64,000 nt of DNA from a virus (IMGVR_UViG_3300046167_000873:32001-96000); one strand, 5' to 3'. Shown: positions 1-17,296, numbered from the stretch's first letter. Numbers and translations are program-made. The notes: generated by a model not told the origin, from the letters alone.

Positions 1-617
1 ACTTCGACATGATCCAATTCGGAATATGAGTTGTAATCATCGGTCAGTCGAATCAGTACTTCTTCTTGCCAAGCATAATCATTTTTATAGCCGAAGACTA
101 CGTCGTTAGAACGCATTTGCACGACACAGTGTAATTTATTGTCTCTGACGTAATAGGTGACTGCGTTTGTACAGATGAAATCGTTCTTTCCATTTTCGAC
201 AGCTTCCACCCAGATAGATGGTCGAGTATATATGGCCGTTGCTCGTCTTGTGTTACTATCTCCCAACAGACAGTCGAGTACGTTATTGTATTGATCATAG
301 TATTGCTCTCCATGTAGAAGTAATCCATAATTCGAGTTGATTTCACCGTACTTGTTTGCTGAGAGCTCCCATGCTTTAGGCGCTGGACGATCCCCACCAT
401 ATATATCATTAATATTAGTACTATGAGAATCGTACCACCGTAGCTCTCTAAAGATATATTCATCGTTTACTTCTCCAAAGATTGTTGGGCGGTCAGCTAA
501 AAATGAAGCGCCTAACATTTCAATTGTTTTGCAACCAGTACGATCGGTGACAAAATCCTTTCGTAACAGTGCTGTTTTAAAAAACTCTCGTATATCATTA
601 GTGCGAATATGCATCAT
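1..617 (-). CDS. gp42: dCMP hydroxymethylase (T4 gp42-like, thymidylate synthase fold); runs off the left end of the window
   Basis: Not in the ORF track; translated by hand from the ATG at 617 (TAATG overlap with the upstream stop): MMHIRTNDIREFFKTALLRKDFVTDRTGCKTIEMLGASFLAD...GEINSNYG...RRATAIYTRPS...DFICTNAV...MRSNDVVFGYKNDYAWQ. Co-linear with T4 gp42, including the catalytic Cys and the cytosine-specifying Asp (KND). Confidence 0.93.
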   Translation of the reverse strand, partial: MMHIRTNDIREFFKTALLRKDFVTDRTGCKTIEMLGASFLADRPTIFGEVNDEYIFRELRWYDSHSTNINDIYGGDRPAPKAWELSANKYGEINSNYGLLLHGEQYYDQYNNVLDCLLGDSNTRRATAIYTRPSIWVEAVENGKNDFICTNAVTYYVRDNKLHCVVQMRSNDVVFGYKNDYAWQEEVLIRLTDDYNSYSELDHVE

Positions 618-928
618 TAATCTTTCCACCTATCATCTATTTTAGAAGTATCTTGTTGATCCATTGCTATCATCATGATCATAATCTGAGTAGCAGCATG
701 GGCTAAATGGCTTAATCCTGATTCAGGGTCGATGTCTTCACCTGACCAAAATGAATTAAGATGACGTTGAATCGATGAATAGCTACGAGACAATTCTGTG
801 CAGTCTATATCTTCACGCCAATTATTCGCGCCATACTTGTCAGCACCGAAACCGAACACCTTAGAAATTTCTATTAGTGTTTCAGGTGGTATAAGAGCGA
901 GGGGCGGTTTGCCCCTATCATATTTCAT
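617..928 (-). CDS. DUF5664-family dNTP diphosphohydrolase-like protein
   Basis: Family pattern KYD.GK..L.LIP...V..FGA.KYG.NNW...RHL..FW.GED.DPESGL.HLAHA. Confidence 0.85.
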   Translation of the reverse strand: MKYDRGKPPLALIPPETLIEISKVFGFGADKYGANNWREDIDCTELSRSYSSIQRHLNSFWSGEDIDPESGLSHLAHAATQIMIMMIAMDQQDTSKIDDRWKD

Positions 929-2387: not shown

Positions 2388-2789
2388 CTAGACATTTTCA
2401 AAAAGACCGTGGTTGCCTGAATGATCAGGCGCCTTCCATCCACTTGGCTTTACAAGATCAGGCAGACCAAGTGGGTTTGGACGGCTTTCTTTTTGTCCTA
2501 CTTGTTTTGCCATATTAGCTTCTGCTACACGATCCCAAGCTTCATATGCATCTACATTAAAAGCATCTAATGTACCAATAGCAACAACACACAGATCAAT
2601 AAGACCATCAACGATTTCTTCAGGATCACGTGCATCAACTGCAAGAGCAGTTTCATTGAGTTCTTCATAAAGAAACTTAAGACGAAAGTCCAAATACTCC
2701 TTTAACTTGTCTGGGTTATTCTTTACCCATTCACCAACACCGTATTGCTTGTGCATACGTTCAATATCATAAACCCAGTCATTCGACAT
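2388..2789 (-). CDS. MazG-like/PRA-PH all-alpha NTP pyrophosphohydrolase
   Basis: R.KFL.EELNE...EEIVDGLIDL...AW..V..ANMAK...KP.GW..PD pattern. Confidence 0.8.
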   Translation of the reverse strand: MSNDWVYDIERMHKQYGVGEWVKNNPDKLKEYLDFRLKFLYEELNETALAVDARDPEEIVDGLIDLCVVAIGTLDAFNVDAYEAWDRVAEANMAKQVGQKESRPNPLGLPDLVKPSGWKAPDHSGNHGLFENV

Positions 2790-3298
2790 TATACTGCTCC
2801 TTTAAAAGCTCTTAAAAATTTCTTCTTTAAATTATCTCTACGCTTCCGTGCTTTTTTGAGGTTAATCTCAGAAACACGTTGCGTAAAATAGATACCATCT
2901 AGATGATCAATCTCGTGTTGTATTACTCGTGATACCATACCGGTAAATGTATGTGCCTTTTGTTCACCTTGTGGCGTATGCCACCGTACTCGGCAAGATT
3001 TTGGTCTTCGTACCTTGGCTAGCATAAACTCATCACTCAAGCAACCTTCAGTTTTTACACTATAATCATCACTATAAAATACTATGCGAGGATTGTACAT
3101 AGCTAGCTTGCCTTCATCTTGAGTATTGATGATGCACAACCTATGGTTAAGTCCAACTTGATTGGCTGCTATACCTAGTCCGCCCTTTTCTACCATAAAG
3201 TTAGATAGTTCATTTACTAGCTCTATAGCATCACATGGAGGATTCTCAAAATCAAATGGTTCGATTTTATCATGCAGATATGTAGGATCTATTTTCAT
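2789..3298 (-). CDS. def: peptide deformylase
   Basis: All three PDF motifs: GLGIAANQVG, EGCLS, QHEIDHLDG. Start taken at ATG 3298 (track uses 3319). Confidence 0.95.
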   Translation of the reverse strand: MKIDPTYLHDKIEPFDFENPPCDAIELVNELSNFMVEKGGLGIAANQVGLNHRLCIINTQDEGKLAMYNPRIVFYSDDYSVKTEGCLSDEFMLAKVRRPKSCRVRWHTPQGEQKAHTFTGMVSRVIQHEIDHLDGIYFTQRVSEINLKKARKRRDNLKKKFLRAFKGAV

Positions 3299-3299
3299 T

Positions 3300-3491
3300 T
3301 TATTCACTGTCAAAATCAACTATTCTTACAAGGTTTTCATTTGTAATTTTAAGTTTGTTGTCAATGTAATGTTGTGCCTCAGCCTCATTCATAAAAACCA
3401 TATCGACTTTCGTAATCCGGCTTTTGGCTGTATCAATAACATTATACCACTTACCATCTTCTTTTATTTTAGCTTGAATTTTATATGCCAT
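3300..3491 (-). CDS. hypothetical protein
   Basis: AGGAG RBS; fills the gap between gp46 and def. Confidence 0.65.
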   Translation of the reverse strand: MAYKIQAKIKEDGKWYNVIDTAKSRITKVDMVFMNEAEAQHYIDNKLKITNENLVRIVDFDSE

Positions 3492-5203: not shown

Positions 5204-5616
5204 AACGTATTTCCTCTAAGTAAAAGCTCACCATTATACTGTGTATTCACTTGAACAGAACCCTCATTCTGTGATACTGCCCACCAAATAGCCCAAACAA
5301 GTTGTACCTGATCAACCTCTTCATATTTAGTCTGTCTAATAAAAAGGTGCTTACCTTCTTCGTCTTCGTTTTGGTATGTTATGAATCCACATTTATTTGG
5401 CTTTAAAGATTCAGGAAGTCCTTCATCTTCTAACCAAGAACATCTAAATGATCTGCACGTAATTGGTCTATCTGGATAAATTGTACAACCTGATTCATAT
5501 TTTGAACACACAGGCATATTAGATGATGCTATAACATCTTCACCAGTCATTGACTTATCATTAAACCATAAAATACCGGTGCAGCATGCATAGCAATCAC
5601 CGCATTCCCTACTCAT
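5197..5616 (-). CDS. YkgJ/FliB-like CxxCxxCC cysteine-cluster protein
   Basis: CGDCYACC...C...GCTIYPDRPITCRSFRC. Confidence 0.8.
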   Translation of the reverse strand: MSRECGDCYACCTGILWFNDKSMTGEDVIASSNMPVCSKYESGCTIYPDRPITCRSFRCSWLEDEGLPESLKPNKCGFITYQNEDEEGKHLFIRQTKYEEVDQVQLVWAIWWAVSQNEGSVQVNTQYNGELLLRGNTLS

Positions 5617-6718
5617 TAGATATTGCCTCAGAATATAAGTCGTAAAATAAATCGTGCACTGGCTTCGGTGCTGGAAGATTCAAACTATCAATGTACTTGT
5701 TCACGATTGTAGCTGTGTCTTCTGCTTCATTAATAATGTCGTCTGCGTTTTCCATATCAAGACGTAGATTATCTTCTACGATTTGAACGTGACATGGATT
5801 AGCTTGATTGATGCTATCGACAAATAAATCGAAGAGGTATGGATTGTCTTTATTCTTTACGACAATCTTTATGAAGGTATCTTTGAGGTGGCCATGATCT
5901 TCTTTTATAGATGCATGGATATTATCTTCGTTGCTATCATCATAAAATACTTTGTGGAACATAGAGTAAGGATTCTTAATGTATTCTAACTCTCTTGTTT
6001 TAGTATCAAAAATATGAAACCCACGATCATCATCATAATCAGACCATGTCATTTCATATGGTGCGCCTAGATAATGTATATTGTCTTTCGAGGACTTATG
6101 GTGGAAGTGACCAGACATCACCATATCAAACTTGCCAAACGTCGCGTGGCTCATTCCTGAGTCTATCTTTGTACCTTTATACATTTCAAAACCACTGAGC
6201 TCAAGGTGACCCATACATACGTCAGCATTGCTGTTTTTGATTGTATGCATTGCATAATCATAATTCGAACTATTGATCCAAGGCATAAACATTATTTTAC
6301 AGCCATCAAAATCAAAGTCATTAGATGGGTGTGCGTGTACCCACATCTCTGATGTATTGAGTATGTAATCGTTTTTTGGACAGGGCCATTTATCCTTCAT
6401 CCATCCAAGGAGTAGATACGGTGCGTTTACGGCGTTAGTGTTCTTAAAGTATGTATCATGATTACCAACGATACAATGGAGATTGATACCCTTACCATAA
6501 ATTGGACCAAAAAAATAATCATTACAACGCTTAAGACTATCGAAATTGATGTACTTACGTCGATCAAAAATGTCTCCCAATTCAATGATATCTTTGATAC
6601 CACGCTCTTCCAAGGTTGGGAAAAATACTTCGCTATAAAACTTTTCATAATAATTATGAAACTGTGTACTGTCATTTCGAACCCCGAAATGCTGGTCTGT
6701 AATTAAAGCGATCTTCAT
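5609..6718 (-). CDS. gp47: recombination endonuclease nuclease subunit (SbcD/Mre11-like)
   Basis: Metallophosphoesterase motifs TDQHFG, LGDIFD, GNHD, GHFH. Confidence 0.96.
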   Translation of the reverse strand: MKIALITDQHFGVRNDSTQFHNYYEKFYSEVFFPTLEERGIKDIIELGDIFDRRKYINFDSLKRCNDYFFGPIYGKGINLHCIVGNHDTYFKNTNAVNAPYLLLGWMKDKWPCPKNDYILNTSEMWVHAHPSNDFDFDGCKIMFMPWINSSNYDYAMHTIKNSNADVCMGHLELSGFEMYKGTKIDSGMSHATFGKFDMVMSGHFHHKSSKDNIHYLGAPYEMTWSDYDDDRGFHIFDTKTRELEYIKNPYSMFHKVFYDDSNEDNIHASIKEDHGHLKDTFIKIVVKNKDNPYLFDLFVDSINQANPCHVQIVEDNLRLDMENADDIINEAEDTATIVNKYIDSLNLPAPKPVHDLFYDLYSEAISNE

Positions 6719-7845
6719 TTACTTATCCTTTCGATCTCTTGACGTATTTCCATAGCGCCTGATTTCGTACCAAATTTATGACCATGTACTGCACCACCAG
6801 CATTAGCAAGATAATCATTACCAATTCTATTCGTAATCGGTTCGATGAGTCCTGCATGCATACCACAACTAAGTATTGGTATTGTATTACATTCTCGTAG
6901 CGCGTGTACACAGTTCATTGTTTCAGAATCGTCGTGGTTACTATAACCACCAAGCATTCCTACTTGAATAGAATCAACACCGCAGAGTGTTGCGAGACGA
7001 CACATGACTGGCCATGATATACTATATCGGTGTGATTTATCGCACATGACTTTTGAGCCACTGCTTTGATAATGCATAAACAGGGGTAAATCCATACGAC
7101 GGATACTATGGTATGCACCTAATCCGCTAAAGACATTAACATGCACACCACGACCACCTAATTCGCTCACCATCAAAGCTCTCTCACTAATCACATGAGG
7201 ATCACCATTTATGGTATGGCAAAACATTATATTAGAATTAATTCGTTCTAAATAATTTGCGACTGCATCGACACGTTCATATAAAGGAGCTATTGCTGGG
7301 TTAGACATGATTTCATCTTCTTTGATAAAATCAACACCACCATCAACCAGCATTGATACCATGTCGATCAACGTCTTTGTAGTAATCCCAATCTTTGGTT
7401 TGATAATACTACCAAATAACGGTTTATCATATTGCCCAGTTTTTTCTCTTAGACCAGATAACCCAATCTTTGGCTTATAAAAAAGCTTTTCAATTCTATC
7501 AGGGAAGGATATATCAATGAGTCGGCATTTTTCAACAATTTCAATGTCAGTATGACCGCCCATCAATTGACAAAGCAAATGGCTAATGCCGTCGTTTTTC
7601 CAATCTGTATTACAAACAGGATATGCAATACAAATAACGTCGTCACGATTCAAGTCCACAATTTTACATGCGAACTTCTCTATCATTTCCTGCGTTTCCC
7701 AGTCATTACGAATATCAGGATTACCGATACTCTGACCAATTGCTATTGCGTAAGCTGCTTCTTCAATTGTTGTCTTAGATTCGATTTCATAGCAAGCAAG
7801 GACATAGTCATTCCTTAACTCTTCCATCTTCCGATATAAGTTCAT
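6715..7845 (-). CDS. RuBisCO-like protein (form IV RLP)
   Basis: GSIIKPKIG (K175/K177), GGVDFIKEDE (K201/D203/E204), LSCG, AGGAVHGH; lacks H294, R295, H327 and K334 equivalents. Confidence 0.9.
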   Translation of the reverse strand: MNLYRKMEELRNDYVLACYEIESKTTIEEAAYAIAIGQSIGNPDIRNDWETQEMIEKFACKIVDLNRDDVICIAYPVCNTDWKNDGISHLLCQLMGGHTDIEIVEKCRLIDISFPDRIEKLFYKPKIGLSGLREKTGQYDKPLFGSIIKPKIGITTKTLIDMVSMLVDGGVDFIKEDEIMSNPAIAPLYERVDAVANYLERINSNIMFCHTINGDPHVISERALMVSELGGRGVHVNVFSGLGAYHSIRRMDLPLFMHYQSSGSKVMCDKSHRYSISWPVMCRLATLCGVDSIQVGMLGGYSNHDDSETMNCVHALRECNTIPILSCGMHAGLIEPITNRIGNDYLANAGGAVHGHKFGTKSGAMEIRQEIERISK

Positions 7846-8233
7846 CTAATTGTTCTCCACGGTATTCTGTTATCTTATCTCCTGGGATACTAGGAGCTTT
7901 CACGCATACTATCACACAATCTTCTAAAAATACAGGTTTAACGATAGATTTTTTAGGAACAACAAATACAGATTCAGGTTCAATAATCGTACCATAAATT
8001 GACATCTTGCCTGTCACGAGTACATTGTATTCATCATGAGATCGATGGTAGTGTGCTGGCCAATCTTCCCCCTTGCTGTGTTTAAAAACACCAACTTCAA
8101 ATTTAGAAGTCTTTAAAACGGATGGTTCGAAATTACCGATAAACCAACCTCTTGTAAATTCAGAAAGTGGTATTACCCTCATTTGTCGGTTACCAAATTT
8201 TAAACCGAAAATTCTTTTAATCAACTTAATCAT
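7808..8233 (-). CDS. cupin-fold protein
   Basis: GWFIGNFEPS...AHYH....EYNVLVTGKM cupin metal motif; start at 8233 or 8182. Confidence 0.8.
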   Translation of the reverse strand: MIKLIKRIFGLKFGNRQMRVIPLSEFTRGWFIGNFEPSVLKTSKFEVGVFKHSKGEDWPAHYHRSHDEYNVLVTGKMSIYGTIIEPESVFVVPKKSIVKPVFLEDCVIVCVKAPSIPGDKITEYRGEQLDELISEDGRVKE

Positions 8234-10001
8234 TTTTACGTACCACATAATTGCCCATGAATAAAATATCAATATCCATTTTCATAAACGCATTTAATGC
8301 ATCAGTAGGAGTTTCAACTATAGGTTCGCCATTATCATTGAATGAAGTATTAAGTACAATCGGCACACCAGTTTTCTCATTAACAGCACGAAGCAGTTTT
8401 GTTACTGTATGATTTTGTTCTTCGTTAACTGTTTGAATACGGCAGCTACGATCAAGATGTGAGATTGCTGGTATCTCAGAAACTTTATCTTCTTTTACTG
8501 TAAACGCATAAAGCATATACGGAGATTCAAAATCTTCTTCAAAGTAATCTGTAAGATACTCATCAAGAATAATACCGGCAAACGGCCTCCACTCTTCTCT
8601 ATGCTTCACCCTTTGATTAAGTATATCTTTATTTTCGGCTAATTTTGGGCTCATTAAAATAGACCGTGAACCAAGTGCTCTTGGACCAAACTCAGATCTA
8701 CCTTGAAACCATCCTACTATTTTATTATCGTTAATACATTCTGCTGCGATGTTATCAATATCAAATGGTCTATGTTCATAAAACAAACTATTTTCTGTTG
8801 ATCTATTAAATTCTTTGATCGCCTCTTCTATTTCATTACTATTATAATGCTTACCTAATAATGCAATATTATCAGGCATAGTAGGATGCTTACAACCTTG
8901 GCTAACAAGACCTAGAAACGCAGCACCTAAATGTAATCCTGTATCTGTAGTATACGGCGGAATGTGTACTCCTTTCATCATCGGCGTCTGTTTTAGCCAA
9001 GTGTTTGCTTTTACATTTAAAAATATACCACCTGAAAAACATACGTTATCTTCTAAGTATCCTTCCTTATAATATAAGGTCATCATTTTCTGAAGTGCGT
9101 CTTCGTGGTTACGCTGTAGAACGTATGCTTTTTCTGCATGTGACAGAGTAGTGCATTCTTCTGATGACCAATGCGGGTGATGCTCTCCAATGTATGGTCT
9201 GCCGTTATAACCAATCTCTTCATTTGTTATGGTGTAAATATATTTTTTTTCAAAATCTGGGTCTTTACCTAAATCTGAACCGTATGCACAAAGTCCCATA
9301 ATTTTTCCGTGCATAGAATCCATTTCACCACGGTAATGTTTTCCTGTATTATGCTCTATATCAATAATACTGCAAAAAATGCTTTCTGAACCTATTGCCC
9401 AATGTGAGCCTAAACAATTTGTATGTGGCAAATCGTGGAATATTCTAAACATGGATTTGTTTTTATTAAAATATCCTAACGCACCTCTTTCTGTAATAGA
9501 GGTTGGAAAAACAAATCTGCCTTCATCGTCTCGGGCTACGTGTGACGGAATACTCTCGCCTGAACCATCATTTGTAATAAACGCACCTTCTTCATACGGG
9601 CTTGTATAGATAGACACTGCTGCGTGGCAACTATGATGGGGATAAAATTCTATTTTTGCTTTTGGAAATAATCCCTCAAGCCGTTTTTGTAATTGATGTT
9701 CAAACCTTGATATTTTAAAAAGAGGTGATCCTGGAGTAGCGACACAAACCATATCGATCATATCTACAGTTAGTTTACCTGCTTCAAGGCAATACATAAT
9801 ACTTTGTTGCGGCTCTGATCCATCATATTTTACGCGAGAAAGCCTTTCTTCTTGGATACTACAGATGTGTTCTCCATCTATAAACAGGCTCGCTCCAGCA
9901 TCATGCACCCATTCTACCAGATGTTGTTCGATATCATTTTTAATATGGTCTTCATTTCTAGGATTCCAACCCCACGCACCATACACGCCGAGAATATTCA
10001 T
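8226..10001 (-). CDS. NodU/CmcH/TobZ-family O-carbamoyltransferase
   Basis: HDAGA, EERLSRVK, HHSCHAA, DGSGE, GKIMGL, SGGIFLN, GRSEFGPRALGSRS, KHRE.WRPFA, LNTSFN. Confidence 0.95.
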   Translation of the reverse strand: MNILGVYGAWGWNPRNEDHIKNDIEQHLVEWVHDAGASLFIDGEHICSIQEERLSRVKYDGSEPQQSIMYCLEAGKLTVDMIDMVCVATPGSPLFKISRFEHQLQKRLEGLFPKAKIEFYPHHSCHAAVSIYTSPYEEGAFITNDGSGESIPSHVARDDEGRFVFPTSITERGALGYFNKNKSMFRIFHDLPHTNCLGSHWAIGSESIFCSIIDIEHNTGKHYRGEMDSMHGKIMGLCAYGSDLGKDPDFEKKYIYTITNEEIGYNGRPYIGEHHPHWSSEECTTLSHAEKAYVLQRNHEDALQKMMTLYYKEGYLEDNVCFSGGIFLNVKANTWLKQTPMMKGVHIPPYTTDTGLHLGAAFLGLVSQGCKHPTMPDNIALLGKHYNSNEIEEAIKEFNRSTENSLFYEHRPFDIDNIAAECINDNKIVGWFQGRSEFGPRALGSRSILMSPKLAENKDILNQRVKHREEWRPFAGIILDEYLTDYFEEDFESPYMLYAFTVKEDKVSEIPAISHLDRSCRIQTVNEEQNHTVTKLLRAVNEKTGVPIVLNTSFNDNGEPIVETPTDALNAFMKMDIDILFMGNYVVRKND

Positions 10002-10516
10002 TCTTCAGTAAACCTCTCAACGCCTTTAAGTGTTTTTTTGTTGTTGTCTGTTTTTTTCTTGGATTCAAATTTATCAATAATAGGTTTCATTTTTTCATTT
10101 TGAATATTAAAGTCTTTGTATCCATTGCTACTTTCAGCTTCAAAAAAGTCAGCGTCGATAACAAGTTCTTCGAGAGATTTATATTTGACGTAGGTTTGCT
10201 TTTGCTCCTTTTCTATGCGCCGCAAAAAGGCAAACCAAATAATTCGAGTAAAATATCCAAACGGGTTTTTAGATTTTTCTGGATCAAAACTATGAACTGC
10301 AACAATACAGTTTTCTAGTGAATCGTTGATCATTTCATCTTTGTAAGTATAACCGACAAAATTACCACGGTTGGCAGTACGGGTGGCTATAAGGTAAAAA
10401 GCTTCACCAATCTTTTCTGGTATTCTTGGCACTTCACCGTCAAGTGCTTCATTACATGATTTACGATAATCGACTAGCAGTTGATAAAATTCTTTGTTGT
10501 CTATATAGTTTGCCAT
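9998..10516 (-). CDS. gp55: late-transcription sigma factor
   Basis: NYIDNKEF...NFVGYTYKDEMI.D...FDPEKSKNPFGYFT.I...AFLRRI.KE. Confidence 0.95.
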   Translation of the reverse strand: MANYIDNKEFYQLLVDYRKSCNEALDGEVPRIPEKIGEAFYLIATRTANRGNFVGYTYKDEMINDSLENCIVAVHSFDPEKSKNPFGYFTRIIWFAFLRRIEKEQKQTYVKYKSLEELVIDADFFEAESSNGYKDFNIQNEKMKPIIDKFESKKKTDNNKKTLKGVERFTEE

Positions 10517-15282: not shown

Positions 15283-16341
15283 TTATTTTCGGTTAGTTTT
15301 AGATATAGCCTGGACATAATGTCGAACATCTTCAGAGACATAAGACGGACTATCTTCAGCTTGATCATTAGAACCAACTGAAACTTCTTCATTAATTAGA
15401 CCAGTATGTCCTTCCTCTTTTGCAGACTCAGTGAAATACTGTTCTTTAATGATCTTCAATTTTTCAACATATTCATCAATGCTTCCATACTCAATTCCTT
15501 CAGACAATTGACGCAGTTTTTCAGATTGTGTTTGTACCAATCCTTCAGAAACTTCATCAAATGCAAGTTCTTGGGTTGCTTCAGCCATAACGTTATTTAG
15601 TTGAACGTTTTCAGCTTCAACTGCTTCAAGTGCTTCTTCAAGAGAGTTAACTACAGCTACTAGATCTTCAACCAGGTCACTCTTTTCTTCAGGAACATCT
15701 ACGTAAGATTCTGAGAAAAGATTTTTTAGACCGTCGATGAAGTTCTCTGTAACATCAACTTTAATGTTATTTCGAAGTGCTACTTCGTTGGCTTCAAGCC
15801 ACTTCTCAGTAACGTAGTCCATATACTGTTCTACTTGCTCATGAAGTGTAGAAACAGAAGCAGCTACTTGCTCTTCAAGTTCAGCAGCAAAGGCCTCTTC
15901 GAGTTCAGCTTCAATGAGGGTAGCGCGATTATTGATAGTTGCTTCAAAAATCGTAAGTACACGAGTTTGAGCTTCTTCTGAAAGCTCACTACCAGAAAAC
16001 AGTTCTTGCATGTCTTCTTTCATAGCTTTCGCAGGGGTAGCAACACGAGGTGATGGAACACCAGCTCCTGAGTTACTAACTGATGATGCGTTCTTACCTG
16101 ACGTATCAGGTACAGTATCAGCTTCTTTACCAACTTGAGCAAGAGTCTTGTCAAGGAAAGATGATAGATCTTGCTTTGTCATACCTGCAACCTTAGACAT
16201 AAGGTCGCTTAACATTGCTGATTTAGATGCTGTTGGCTTTAACGATGCAGCTGCGGCAGAAGCCTCAGTAACGTCTTCAGCAGACTCAACAACTTCAACA
16301 TCAACCTGATCGGTTACCTCAACGGTATTTTCTTCAGACAT
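15283..16341 (-). CDS. gp22: prohead core scaffold protein
   Basis: Acidic coiled coil with LSEE...IFEA and Y..YV.E.W...N..A; ATG at 16341 with AGGAG RBS; synteny. Confidence 0.92.
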   Translation of the reverse strand: MSEENTVEVTDQVDVEVVESAEDVTEASAAAASLKPTASKSAMLSDLMSKVAGMTKQDLSSFLDKTLAQVGKEADTVPDTSGKNASSVSNSGAGVPSPRVATPAKAMKEDMQELFSGSELSEEAQTRVLTIFEATINNRATLIEAELEEAFAAELEEQVAASVSTLHEQVEQYMDYVTEKWLEANEVALRNNIKVDVTENFIDGLKNLFSESYVDVPEEKSDLVEDLVAVVNSLEEALEAVEAENVQLNNVMAEATQELAFDEVSEGLVQTQSEKLRQLSEGIEYGSIDEYVEKLKIIKEQYFTESAKEEGHTGLINEEVSVGSNDQAEDSPSYVSEDVRHYVQAISKTNRK

Positions 16342-16377
16342 TAGATGCACTCCTAATTTTTTACGTTATTAATATAG

Positions 16378-16385
16378 TATTTATA
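16378..16385 (-). promoter_or_regulatory. T4 late promoter (gp22)
   Basis: TATAAATA. Confidence 0.8.
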
Positions 16386-16389
16386 TAAA

Positions 16390-17052
16390 TTAATTTCTAG
16401 AGATTTTATTCAAAAAATTCTCGAATATTTCAATCTTCTTTTGCTCTGATAATTGATTACGGCGAACAGAAGCTTCGATCTCTTCTTCAATATCCTCTAT
16501 AGATTTTGAATTAAGTTTACCATTATCCCAGACCCATTCCACTCCTTCCATAATCCCGTTAACAAAAGCATCTGGCGCTGAAGGATCCGCAACGATATCA
16601 GCAGCAGTCGCCAAATGGAAATCATCTTGTACTTCCATGATTCCATCTTTACCTTCTTTAATAGAACCCATACCACGGCTTGAAACACCGAGTTGTGCTC
16701 CGTCTTCTATTAAGCCCCTTGCAATTTGACCCATAGGAGTAGAAGATATTTTGGCTTTACCAATAAAGTTATCTCCTTCACGCTTAAGTTCTGTAATGAT
16801 ATGAGATACACGATCTAAATTGACACCTGGTCCATCAGGGTGACCGAGCTCGCCATATGCGCGACCTTTTTCAACAGATTCTTTTACATAACGATTTACT
16901 TCTCTATCAAGTATGTTAGTATTGTAGAGTCGGCCATTTCGGTTTTTGATATTTCCTTGAAGAAAAATACCTTCGATAAAAAGGTTTTTCTTACCATCTT
17001 TTTCTTCAGTAAGAATTTTAACTGCTTCTGTAACTTCTGTAATAAGTTTCAT
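16390..17052 (-). CDS. gp21: prohead protease
   Basis: NRNGRLY, GELGHP, GVSSRGMG, DIVADPSAPDAFV. Confidence 0.97.
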   Translation of the reverse strand: MKLITEVTEAVKILTEEKDGKKNLFIEGIFLQGNIKNRNGRLYNTNILDREVNRYVKESVEKGRAYGELGHPDGPGVNLDRVSHIITELKREGDNFIGKAKISSTPMGQIARGLIEDGAQLGVSSRGMGSIKEGKDGIMEVQDDFHLATAADIVADPSAPDAFVNGIMEGVEWVWDNGKLNSKSIEDIEEEIEASVRRNQLSEQKKIEIFENFLNKISRN

Positions 17053-17062
17053 TGTTGTGTCC

Positions 17063-17296
17063 TTACGATATGGTGTATGCTACACTAACAGCTTCAATAG
17101 TGCCAGTAGCATTGATCGTATCTGCTGGTGATTTTTCTAGAAAAACAATAGAACCAGTTGGCATTGAAAAAGATCCGCCAGTAGCAATATTAGTAACAAC
17201 ACCTGCAGCGGTTGCATATAACCTTACGACAACAGCATTAGCGACAGTTGTTGGTCCGCTAATGGTCGCTTCTGCATTTAATGGTTTAACTATCAT
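17063..17296 (-). CDS. small hypothetical protein (probable start MIVKPL)
   Basis: ATGA overlap with the upstream gene at 17293-17296. Confidence 0.7.
   Translation of the reverse strand: MIVKPLNAEATISGPTTVANAVVVRLYATAAGVVTNIATGGSFSMPTGSIVFLEKSPADTINATGTIEAVSVAYTIS

Follow-up and report, generated by a model that had tools for sequence, protein, structure and literature searches.

A split, carbamoyltransferase-bearing variant of the phage RuBisCO-like cassette at the gp55/gp47 junction of a marine T4-like phage, with a probable role in sugar activation for a glycan or small molecule

Between gp55 and gp47 of a T4-like phage known from the IMG/VR record IMGVR_UViG_3300046167_000873, three genes encode a NodU/TobZ-type O-carbamoyltransferase (CT), a small cupin and a RuBisCO-like protein (RLP). 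At a rough probability of 0.6, this trio belongs to a split, CT-bearing variant of the phage RLP sugar-activation cassette, which would serve a phage-directed glycan or small molecule and not 5-hydroxymethylcytosine (5hmC or hmC). This reading is based on what was observed of gene identity, residue conservation, co-occurrence and position in the tree. The window, that is, the whole stretch of 64,000 nucleotides that was analysed, comprises bases 32001-96000 of the 150,920-bp record, which is estimated to be 83% complete; coordinates are window positions unless they are prefixed by G000 (the whole record) or by an L-number (a retrieved locus stretch). The trio and its two flanking genes are the following:

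9998-10516, minus strand: gp55 late sigma factor, upstream flank (phrog_234, E 7.7e-52)
8226-10001, minus strand: NodU/TobZ-type O-carbamoyltransferase, 591 aa (PF16861, 229 bits; PF02543, 79 bits; phrog_1601, E 8.5e-118)
7808-8182, minus strand: small single-domain cupin, 124 aa (cupin motif and 32-sequence family alignment)
6715-7845, minus strand: RLP of the phage 'form IV-like' clade, non-carboxylating, 376 aa (PF00016, 116 bits; PF02788, 30 bits)
5609-6718, minus strand: gp47 SbcD-like recombination nuclease subunit, downstream flank (phrog_100, E 2.8e-98)

The company that phage RLPs keep was counted from the open reading frames (ORFs) clustered at 80 related RLP loci. A cupin is present in 53 of these loci, mostly as the gene directly upstream of the RLP, and the phage studied here likewise has an adjacent small cupin of the GWFIGNFEP...HYH...E type. 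Two further families adjoin the RLP elsewhere, namely one of 242 aa, which Pfam identifies as a MobA/IspD-like nucleotidyltransferase (76/80 loci), and one of 148 aa, which starts with a GDPD-type HRG...E.D motif and has no Pfam match (69/80 loci), hereafter mini-GDPD. Moreover, FkbM and CmcI-like methyltransferases, GDP-mannose 4,6-dehydratase and radical-SAM/SPASM proteins are frequent neighbours. The gene directly upstream of the cupin is elsewhere usually the nucleotidyltransferase, but here the CT occupies that place. The phage has its own nucleotidyltransferase (43% identical to the family) and mini-GDPD (45%) in the same genome, but at a distance: they overlap each other at G000 8377-9617 (nucleotidyltransferase at 8844-9617), and this other half of the cassette sits between gp43 and uvsX, about 30 kb from the cupin and RLP. 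Next after these two genes comes an ORF of 296 aa, for which the Atlas model is similar to GT-A glycosyltransferases with a TM score of ~0.5, a likeness to be taken as a lead only. The same record also carries a glycan-tailoring island:

G000:C1:7490-9617: nucleotidyltransferase, mini-GDPD and GT-A-like ORF, overlapping one another
G000:C1:139578-146795: glycan-tailoring island with two FkbM methyltransferases, a GT25-like protein, two sulfotransferase-family proteins and several ORFs without assignment

Relatives of the RLP are found on at least 175 IMG/VR viral contigs at 46-62% identity, with 1407 related proteins overall; a tblastn search against 50,697 isolate phage records gave no match and, thus, the family is so far only metagenomic. 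When RuBisCO residue numbering is transferred from the alignment to PDB 8dht, K175 and K177 (KPK), K201, D203 and E204 (K-E-D-E), S379 and G381 (S-C-G), and G403 and G404 (GG) prove invariant across 28 family members. Other positions are replaced (E60 by G, T65 by N, W66 by P, N123 by G and H327 by Q), and neither the Arg at 295 nor the loop-6 Lys is kept; the full catalytic and ribulose-1,5-bisphosphate-binding set of the carboxylating RuBisCO forms I-III, to which H294 and K334 also belong, is not found in this protein. It scores 166 bits against a cut-off of 497 for rubisco_III and, against the MtnW/YkrW equivalogs, 145 against 409 bits (NF007095) and 112 against 514 bits (TIGR03332), and it stays below every NCBIfam cut-off, whether for carboxylases, MtnW or OiaX. 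As judged from the retained residues, the pattern is that of a predicted metal/carbamate centre, an enolising lysine and one phosphate site, without the second phosphate site and the residues for CO2 addition, and it fits a putative enolisation or isomerisation of a keto-sugar monophosphate.

Pairs of an RLP and a cupin are known from the methylthioadenosine (MTA) and methionine salvage routes. The pairing seen here is likewise found for the MtnW (YkrW) enolase with MtnD and for the Rhodospirillum rubrum RLP with the cupin methylsulfurylase, and the Mg2+/carbamyl-Lys centre and single phosphate site that the phage RLP seems to share with MtnW-type systems would suit the enolisation of a keto-sugar monophosphate. 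In contrast to MTA salvage, however, the phage RLP lies far below the family cut-offs, the cupin has generic small-cupin matches, and the partners are a nucleotidyltransferase and glycan-tailoring enzymes. The reading of the pair as methionine salvage enzymes (MtnW/MtnD) was, thus, rejected on the family scores and the neighbourhood.

The 'form IV-like' phage RLPs of Jaffe, Castelle, Dupont and Banfield are similarly divergent and also keep a partial RuBisCO catalytic set; as the phage passages of that paper describe them, they come from uncultured myoviruses of many environments and have no function assigned (Mol Biol Evol 2019, PMC6389311). The same phage and viral passages make no mention of constant partners (cupin, nucleotidyltransferase or mini-GDPD) or of a CT (PMC6389311). 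Unlike those RLPs, the one studied here belongs to a cassette that is split in two and placed inside the core DNA-metabolism blocks of an hmC phage. What is new is the split layout, the CT in the place of the nucleotidyltransferase and the hmC-phage context, and the novelty is limited to these.

The cupin ORF extends over 7808-8272, and its start was placed at the ATG at 8182 by the family alignment (32 members of 100-124 aa) together with the sequence. Cupin motif 1 is exact, G-x5-H-x-H-x4-E-x6-G with HYH, and H44, H46 and E51 are invariant in the 32-sequence alignment, in which the protein is 39-60% identical to the 31 other members. Its 21-aa C-terminal tail, which overlaps the start of the RLP, is unique within the 32 rows. 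The AlphaFold (AF2) model has a mean pLDDT of 92, and its small-cupin matches in the PDB include KdgF and a mini phosphomannose isomerase of ~105 aa from Thermococcus; these modelled likenesses are compatible with a sugar isomerase, although they do not discriminate.

The CT consists of two domains, Kae1-like at the N-terminus and YrdC-like at the C-terminus, and both Pfam domains score over their cut-offs; this Carbam_trans_N plus Carbam_trans_C architecture is also that of the 5hmC carbamoyltransferase clade. H122, H123, H126, D145, D353 and the R441-S447 block are invariant in the CT alignment and align to TobZ, so that the Kae1-like metal site (HH..H, Asp), the YrdC-like carbamoyl-adenylate site and the EFGPRALG.RS motif of NodU/TobZ enzymes are all kept. 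Bit scores are 209 with TobZ, 225 with 7xb6 and 406-450 with the CTs of cyanophage S-SSM7 and marine virus AG-345-L05, and the score for the NodU equivalog is 151 against a cut-off of 1000. The Pfam domains and the metal and EFGPRALG.RS motifs are, therefore, common to the phage CT and to TobZ, NodU and the cyanophage 'Nol-like' CTs, from which it differs in its position behind gp55 and at a short distance from a cupin-RLP pair. Cyanophage CTs and lipopolysaccharide-like islands are already in print (Sullivan et al. 2010).

A NodU-type phage enzyme has been described as a 5hmC carbamoyltransferase (Yang et al. eLife 2021, PMC8670742), the MetaGPA domain set on modified contigs comprising CT, thymidylate-synthase (TS)-family and PRA-PH domains (PMC8670742) and the positions W408, G421 and R423 of TobZ discriminating the CTs of such contigs (Yang et al. 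2021, PMC8670742). At these three positions the characterised enzyme reads I, C and T, around MEFGPRALCNT, whereas the CT studied here reads GWFQGRSEFGPRALGSRS, that is, W/G/R as in TobZ. W/G/R is also found in 51 of 54 readable marine T4-like CTs, against [ILVT]/C/T (one C/R) in 26 members of a motif clade. The latter was defined by a pattern search for MEFGPRALCN, which gave 43 viral loci, the clade of the characterised enzyme being reached through its motif and not through its full sequence; the signature in this motif-defined set is partly circular, but the TS linkage, a TS/gp42 homologue in 31/43 loci within the short stretch fetched, is not. The phage CT reaches only 41-78 bits with this TS-linked clade in blastp. 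In a FastTree phylogeny of 44 rows, a long branch with 100% support parts the motif clade from the side of the phage CT, which nests among marine T4-like phage CTs at 99% support. By signature residues, tree placement and TS linkage alike, the protein falls outside the TS-linked clade.

The relatives of the CT point the same way. They were gathered by an alignment query, a single CT protein query having given 2 loci only, and at the 80 nearest CT loci neither TS/gp42 nor an RLP was found within 10 kb; gp42 is also absent from the whole S-SSM7 and AG-345-L05 records. In about 15 of these 80 loci, from phages without an RLP, the CT lies between UvsW and gp55, and that of S-SSM7 is in the UvsW-gp55-gp47 region. 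Peptide deformylase genes were also seen near CTs in several other viral loci.

The phage itself carries a true dCMP hydroxymethylase gene, which is context and no member of the cassette, with two NTP pyrophosphohydrolase genes and a peptide deformylase gene close by:

1-629, minus strand: gp42 dCMP hydroxymethylase, truncated at the window edge and complete at G000:C1:31934-32629 (E 7.6e-67 to T4 1B49/1B5D)
617-928, minus strand: all-alpha NTP pyrophosphohydrolase (dGTP_diPhyd_N), abutting gp42, context gene for the hmC route (PF18909, 104.6 bits; phrog_801)
2388-2789, minus strand: MazG-like (PRA-PH) pyrophosphohydrolase (PF01503)
2789-3319, minus strand: peptide deformylase (PF01327, 121 bits)

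The match of gp42 to the T4 enzyme (1B49, E 7.6e-67) is accompanied by the catalytic Cys (DFICTN, T4 Cys148) and by the cytosine-specifying Asp (KNDYAWQ, T4 Asp179); TS fold, catalytic Cys and an Asp replacing TS Asn177 together place the protein in the T4 gp42 family. The gene is about 6 kb from the trio and 7.6 kb from the CT, and from these residues the phage is predicted to make hmC. In 57 of 80 gp42-centred loci, a MazG-like gene is found at a distance of 2-4 kb from gp42, and its product probably acts as the dCTPase, as gp56 does in T4. For alpha- and beta-glucosyltransferases, the record gave no match to PF11440 and a PF09198 score of 18.8 bits, under the cut-off. The link between gp42 and the trio does not extend to relatives at large: neither a CT of either clade nor an RLP was found at any of the 80 gp42-centred loci (58-65% identity), and 17 large viral records with an RLP, among them three complete genomes (187-190 kb), all lack gp42.

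All genes of the gp55-gp47 region are carried by the minus strand in the ORF table, and they read UvsY, UvsW, a 116-aa ORF, gp55, CT, cupin, RLP and gp47, followed by a 139-aa ORF, gp46, peptide deformylase and the MazG-like PRA-PH protein, and then by a SprT-like protein, the dGTP_diPhyd_N pyrophosphohydrolase and the thymidylate-synthase-fold gene (gp42) that crosses the window edge. The gp55 stop overlaps the CT start by 4 nt, the cupin overlaps the RLP by 38 nt and the RLP overlaps gp47 by 4 nt; with the cupin start corrected, CT and cupin do not overlap but are 43 nt apart, a distance that shrinks to 5 nt in a relative (L086). What the initial annotation observed was, thus, confirmed: the CT, cupin and RLP identities between gp55 and gp47 hold by Pfam, PHROG, motif and family alignment, and the gp42-like gene some 6 kb away is a true gp42 with Cys and Asp kept, although the description of three overlapping genes stands for cupin and RLP and fails for CT and cupin. 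The same annotation had likened the slot to that of T4 alpha-glucosyltransferase, whose gene lies between genes 55 and 47; the analogy of map position holds, in a genome that is likewise T4-like and equipped with gp42. Unlike the T4 gene, however, the trio has no sequence relationship to alpha-glucosyltransferase, and the record holds no PF11440 or PF09198 match over cut-off.

The gp55-CT-cupin-RLP-gp47 order recurs together with gp42 in relatives with RLPs 96% and 80% identical and is, therefore, a real and inherited arrangement, and trio and gp42 occur together only in this narrow lineage. In Melnitz, an OM43 phage and the closest isolate, gp55 directly overlaps gp47 and, therefore, the trio appears as an insertion; moreover, the gp55-gp47 gap is only ~670 bp in two gp42-bearing relatives in which the whole region is visible (L158 and L186). 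The trio is, thus, a lineage-specific insertion at the gp55/gp47 junction of a Melnitz-like marine T4-like phage, and the gp55-gp47 slot is simply a site that tolerates insertions. An assignment to the cyanophages was rejected, since the phage lacks psbA and its gp23 is nearest to those of Stenotrophomonas phage DLP_6, Melnitz and Sinorhizobium phages. No T4-type late promoter (TATAAATA) was found on the strand of the trio between 3000 and 13000, whereas such motifs do precede structural genes; given this and the tight packing, the trio is predicted to be expressed with the early/middle DNA-metabolism block. A sigma-70 promoter scan told little, with 65 sites against 48 +/- 6 in shuffles.

In the mechanism that we favour, the metal-dependent cupin would isomerise a sugar phosphate, and the RLP would enolise or isomerise a keto-sugar monophosphate by means of its retained carbamylated-Lys/Mg2+ centre and single phosphate site. 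The nucleotidyltransferase could then activate the product as a nucleoside diphosphate (NDP) or cytidine diphosphate (CDP) derivative to be used by a transferase. The CT, for its part, would use carbamoyl phosphate and ATP to form carbamoyl-AMP, O-carbamoylating a hydroxyl either of the cassette sugar or of a related phage-directed glycan. The acceptor may be a glycan or a small molecule; FkbM methyltransferase, sulfotransferase and GT25-like genes are also present in the phage. Several points weigh against this proposal. The substrates, the product, the order of the steps and the final acceptor are what we infer for the cassette, and the co-occurrence counts rest on 10-kb flanks and fragmentary records. 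A CT adjoining an RLP is rare, being found in 1 of 80 RLP loci outside this lineage, and the coupling of CT and RLP may be only positional, as the UvsW-gp55-gp47 region holds CTs in RLP-less phages too. Besides, as the phage makes hmC but lacks an alpha- or beta-glucosyltransferase homologue above cut-off, its DNA could be the acceptor.

The last point leads to two improbable alternatives that involve hmC. The initial annotation proposed that the phage carbamoylates hmC and that the RLP and cupin may serve a further modification. It is unlikely that the CT has converged on the activity of the known 5hmC carbamoyltransferase and acts on 5hmC, whether in DNA or as hmdCTP, with the cupin and RLP as bystanders. 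True, gp42 is 7.6 kb from the CT and is accompanied by the MazG-like and all-alpha NTP pyrophosphohydrolases, so that CT, TS-family and PRA-PH form the MetaGPA domain set of modified contigs; the slot is that of T4 alpha-gt with no alpha- or beta-glucosyltransferase homologue present, and CT and gp42 have been kept together in relatives with 80-96% identical RLPs. With the enzyme of Yang et al. (2021, PMC8670742) it shares the NodU/TobZ architecture and the company of a TS-family dCMP hydroxymethylase and a PRA-PH pyrophosphatase in the same phage. However, the CT studied here belongs to another clade, on the far side of the 100%-supported long branch, reads W/G/R against [ILVT]/C/T in the characterised enzyme and the 43 motif loci (31 with TS), and has its nearest relatives in phages without gp42 and not linked to TS genes; in turn, 0/80 gp42 loci have a CT, and in the gp42 phages L158 and L186 the gp55-gp47 gap leaves only ~670 bp. 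More improbable again is a pathway in which the hmC of the DNA receives a carbamoylated sugar built by cupin, RLP, nucleotidyltransferase, mini-GDPD, GT-A-like protein and CT, in the manner of T4 glucosylation or RB69 arabinosylation. It would agree with the position of both cassette halves inside DNA-metabolism blocks (gp43/uvsX and gp55/gp47) without a late promoter, with a phage that is predicted to make hmC but has no recognisable alpha- or beta-glucosyltransferase, and with the GT-A-like ORF after the nucleotidyltransferase and mini-GDPD. Nevertheless, the GT-A likeness reaches only a TM score of ~0.5, the cassette is overwhelmingly found in phages without gp42 (gp42 in 0/17 large records), and a different gp42-linked module, absent from RLP loci, is a better candidate. 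If true, cassette and CT would have been recruited into these blocks by the hmC-making lineage for the building of a rare sugar, and such a route would be a new sugar-type cytosine hypermodification in the T4 alpha-gt slot and the first biosynthetic role of a RuBisCO-fold enzyme in DNA modification.

A doubtful possibility, with a somewhat better chance than those two, is that the adjacency is an accident of an insertion hot spot, the CT having an unrelated small-molecule or host-metabolite role as in cyanophages and the cupin and RLP running a salvage-type reaction (methylthio-sugar or acireductone-like) that feeds no glycan. The CTs in the UvsW-gp55 region of about 15 phages without an RLP favour it, as do the RLP and cupin pairs generally known from MTA/methionine salvage and the much faster divergence of the CT than of the RLP between relatives (50% versus 80% identity). 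However, the RLP is far below the MtnW cut-off (145 versus 409 bits), the constant partners are a nucleotidyltransferase and sugar-tailoring enzymes and not salvage enzymes, and CT and cupin are only 43 nt apart, or 5 nt in L086. The split sugar-activation cassette is, thus, preferred over all three. Regarding the interpretation in the initial annotation, it is only partly supported. Carbamoylation of hmC finds no support from a CT outside the TS-linked clade that carries the motif of the characterised enzyme, on the other side of the supported branch, and with nearest relatives lacking gp42; a role of RLP and cupin in hmC modification is at odds with a pair present in at least 175 IMG/VR contigs and with gp42 in 0/17 large records. 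Its authors had set beforehand, as an outcome that would speak against it, a trio occurring mainly in phages without gp42, and this was found for each part: neither CT nor RLP is in any of the 80 gp42 loci, and trio and gp42 coincide only in the one narrow lineage. The alternative that it offered, a modification of glycans, holds up in view of the sugar-tailoring neighbours and of CTs in phages without gp42.

If the phage hypermodifies hmC, the module linked to gp42 is a stronger candidate than the trio:

G000:C1:26224-30717: gp42-linked module, four ORFs between gp42 and gp45, just left of the window

Its 321-aa ORF encodes a pyridoxal-phosphate (PLP) fold-II enzyme (PHROG 'threonine dehydratase', E 2e-58), and it also holds a 386-aa ORF, a 373-aa ORF and a glycosyltransferase (GT)-like ORF of 324 aa. 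GDSH and D..HH motifs are invariant in the 373-aa protein, whose two-domain model (pLDDT 87.5) matches SGNH esterases. A reading of this ORF as a beta-glucosyltransferase (PF09198, 18.8 bits, E 0.0016) was rejected because of the predicted SGNH/GDSL fold and a TM score of 0.30 with T4 beta-glucosyltransferase. HMUDK_hel and ADDT (amino-acid:DNA-transferase) domains are known from thymidine hypermodification, and the nearest Atlas clusters of the 386-aa protein are viral families in which 11-36% of the members have these domains, which is a lead only; the ORF itself gave no Pfam match even at E up to 10. Three families of the module lie downstream of gp42 in 20/52, 11/52 and 11/52 of the loci with at least 5 kb of downstream sequence, the 373-aa gene beginning 9-15 nt after gp42 in four loci, and the module families were found in none of the RLP-centred or CT-centred loci.

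Some further observations were made in the retrieved loci. In L086, the relative with the 80%-identical RLP, gp42 is followed at 15713-17148 by PsiE-like and isocitrate lyase (ICL)/phosphoenolpyruvate (PEP)-mutase-family genes, the second of which could indicate phosphonate or C-P chemistry and has no equivalent at that position in the source phage. In L213, a cupin of the RLP-cassette type (L213:11732-12025) lies 2 kb downstream of gp42, with no RLP match in the fetched stretch; it is the only overlap of the gp42 and cassette gene sets outside the lineage of the source phage. A radical-SAM/SPASM protein (L214:5515-6393) and a short ORF resembling short-chain dehydrogenases/reductases (SDR; L214:4938-5525) adjoin uvsX in L214, a stretch of the source phage's own record, where the family-B DNA polymerase is present as two overlapping ORFs (L214:10754-13277), an exonuclease part of 192 aa and a part of 726 aa. 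Since Melnitz likewise lists two 'DNA polymerase' ORFs, the division could be natural, or it could reflect a frameshift or an intein-like feature.

The finding bears on phage carbamoyltransferases in general, since finding a NodU-type CT in a phage with gp42 is not enough to conclude that 5-carbamoyloxymethylcytosine is made, and clade membership together with three signature residues separates the two kinds of CT. The search for hmC hypermodification in these marine phages is, thus, redirected to the gp42-linked module. Moreover, the constant company of phage RLPs suggests that the RuBisCO fold serves here in biosynthesis related to glycans, and the trio offers a compact three-gene unit that can be expressed for the finding of its substrates.

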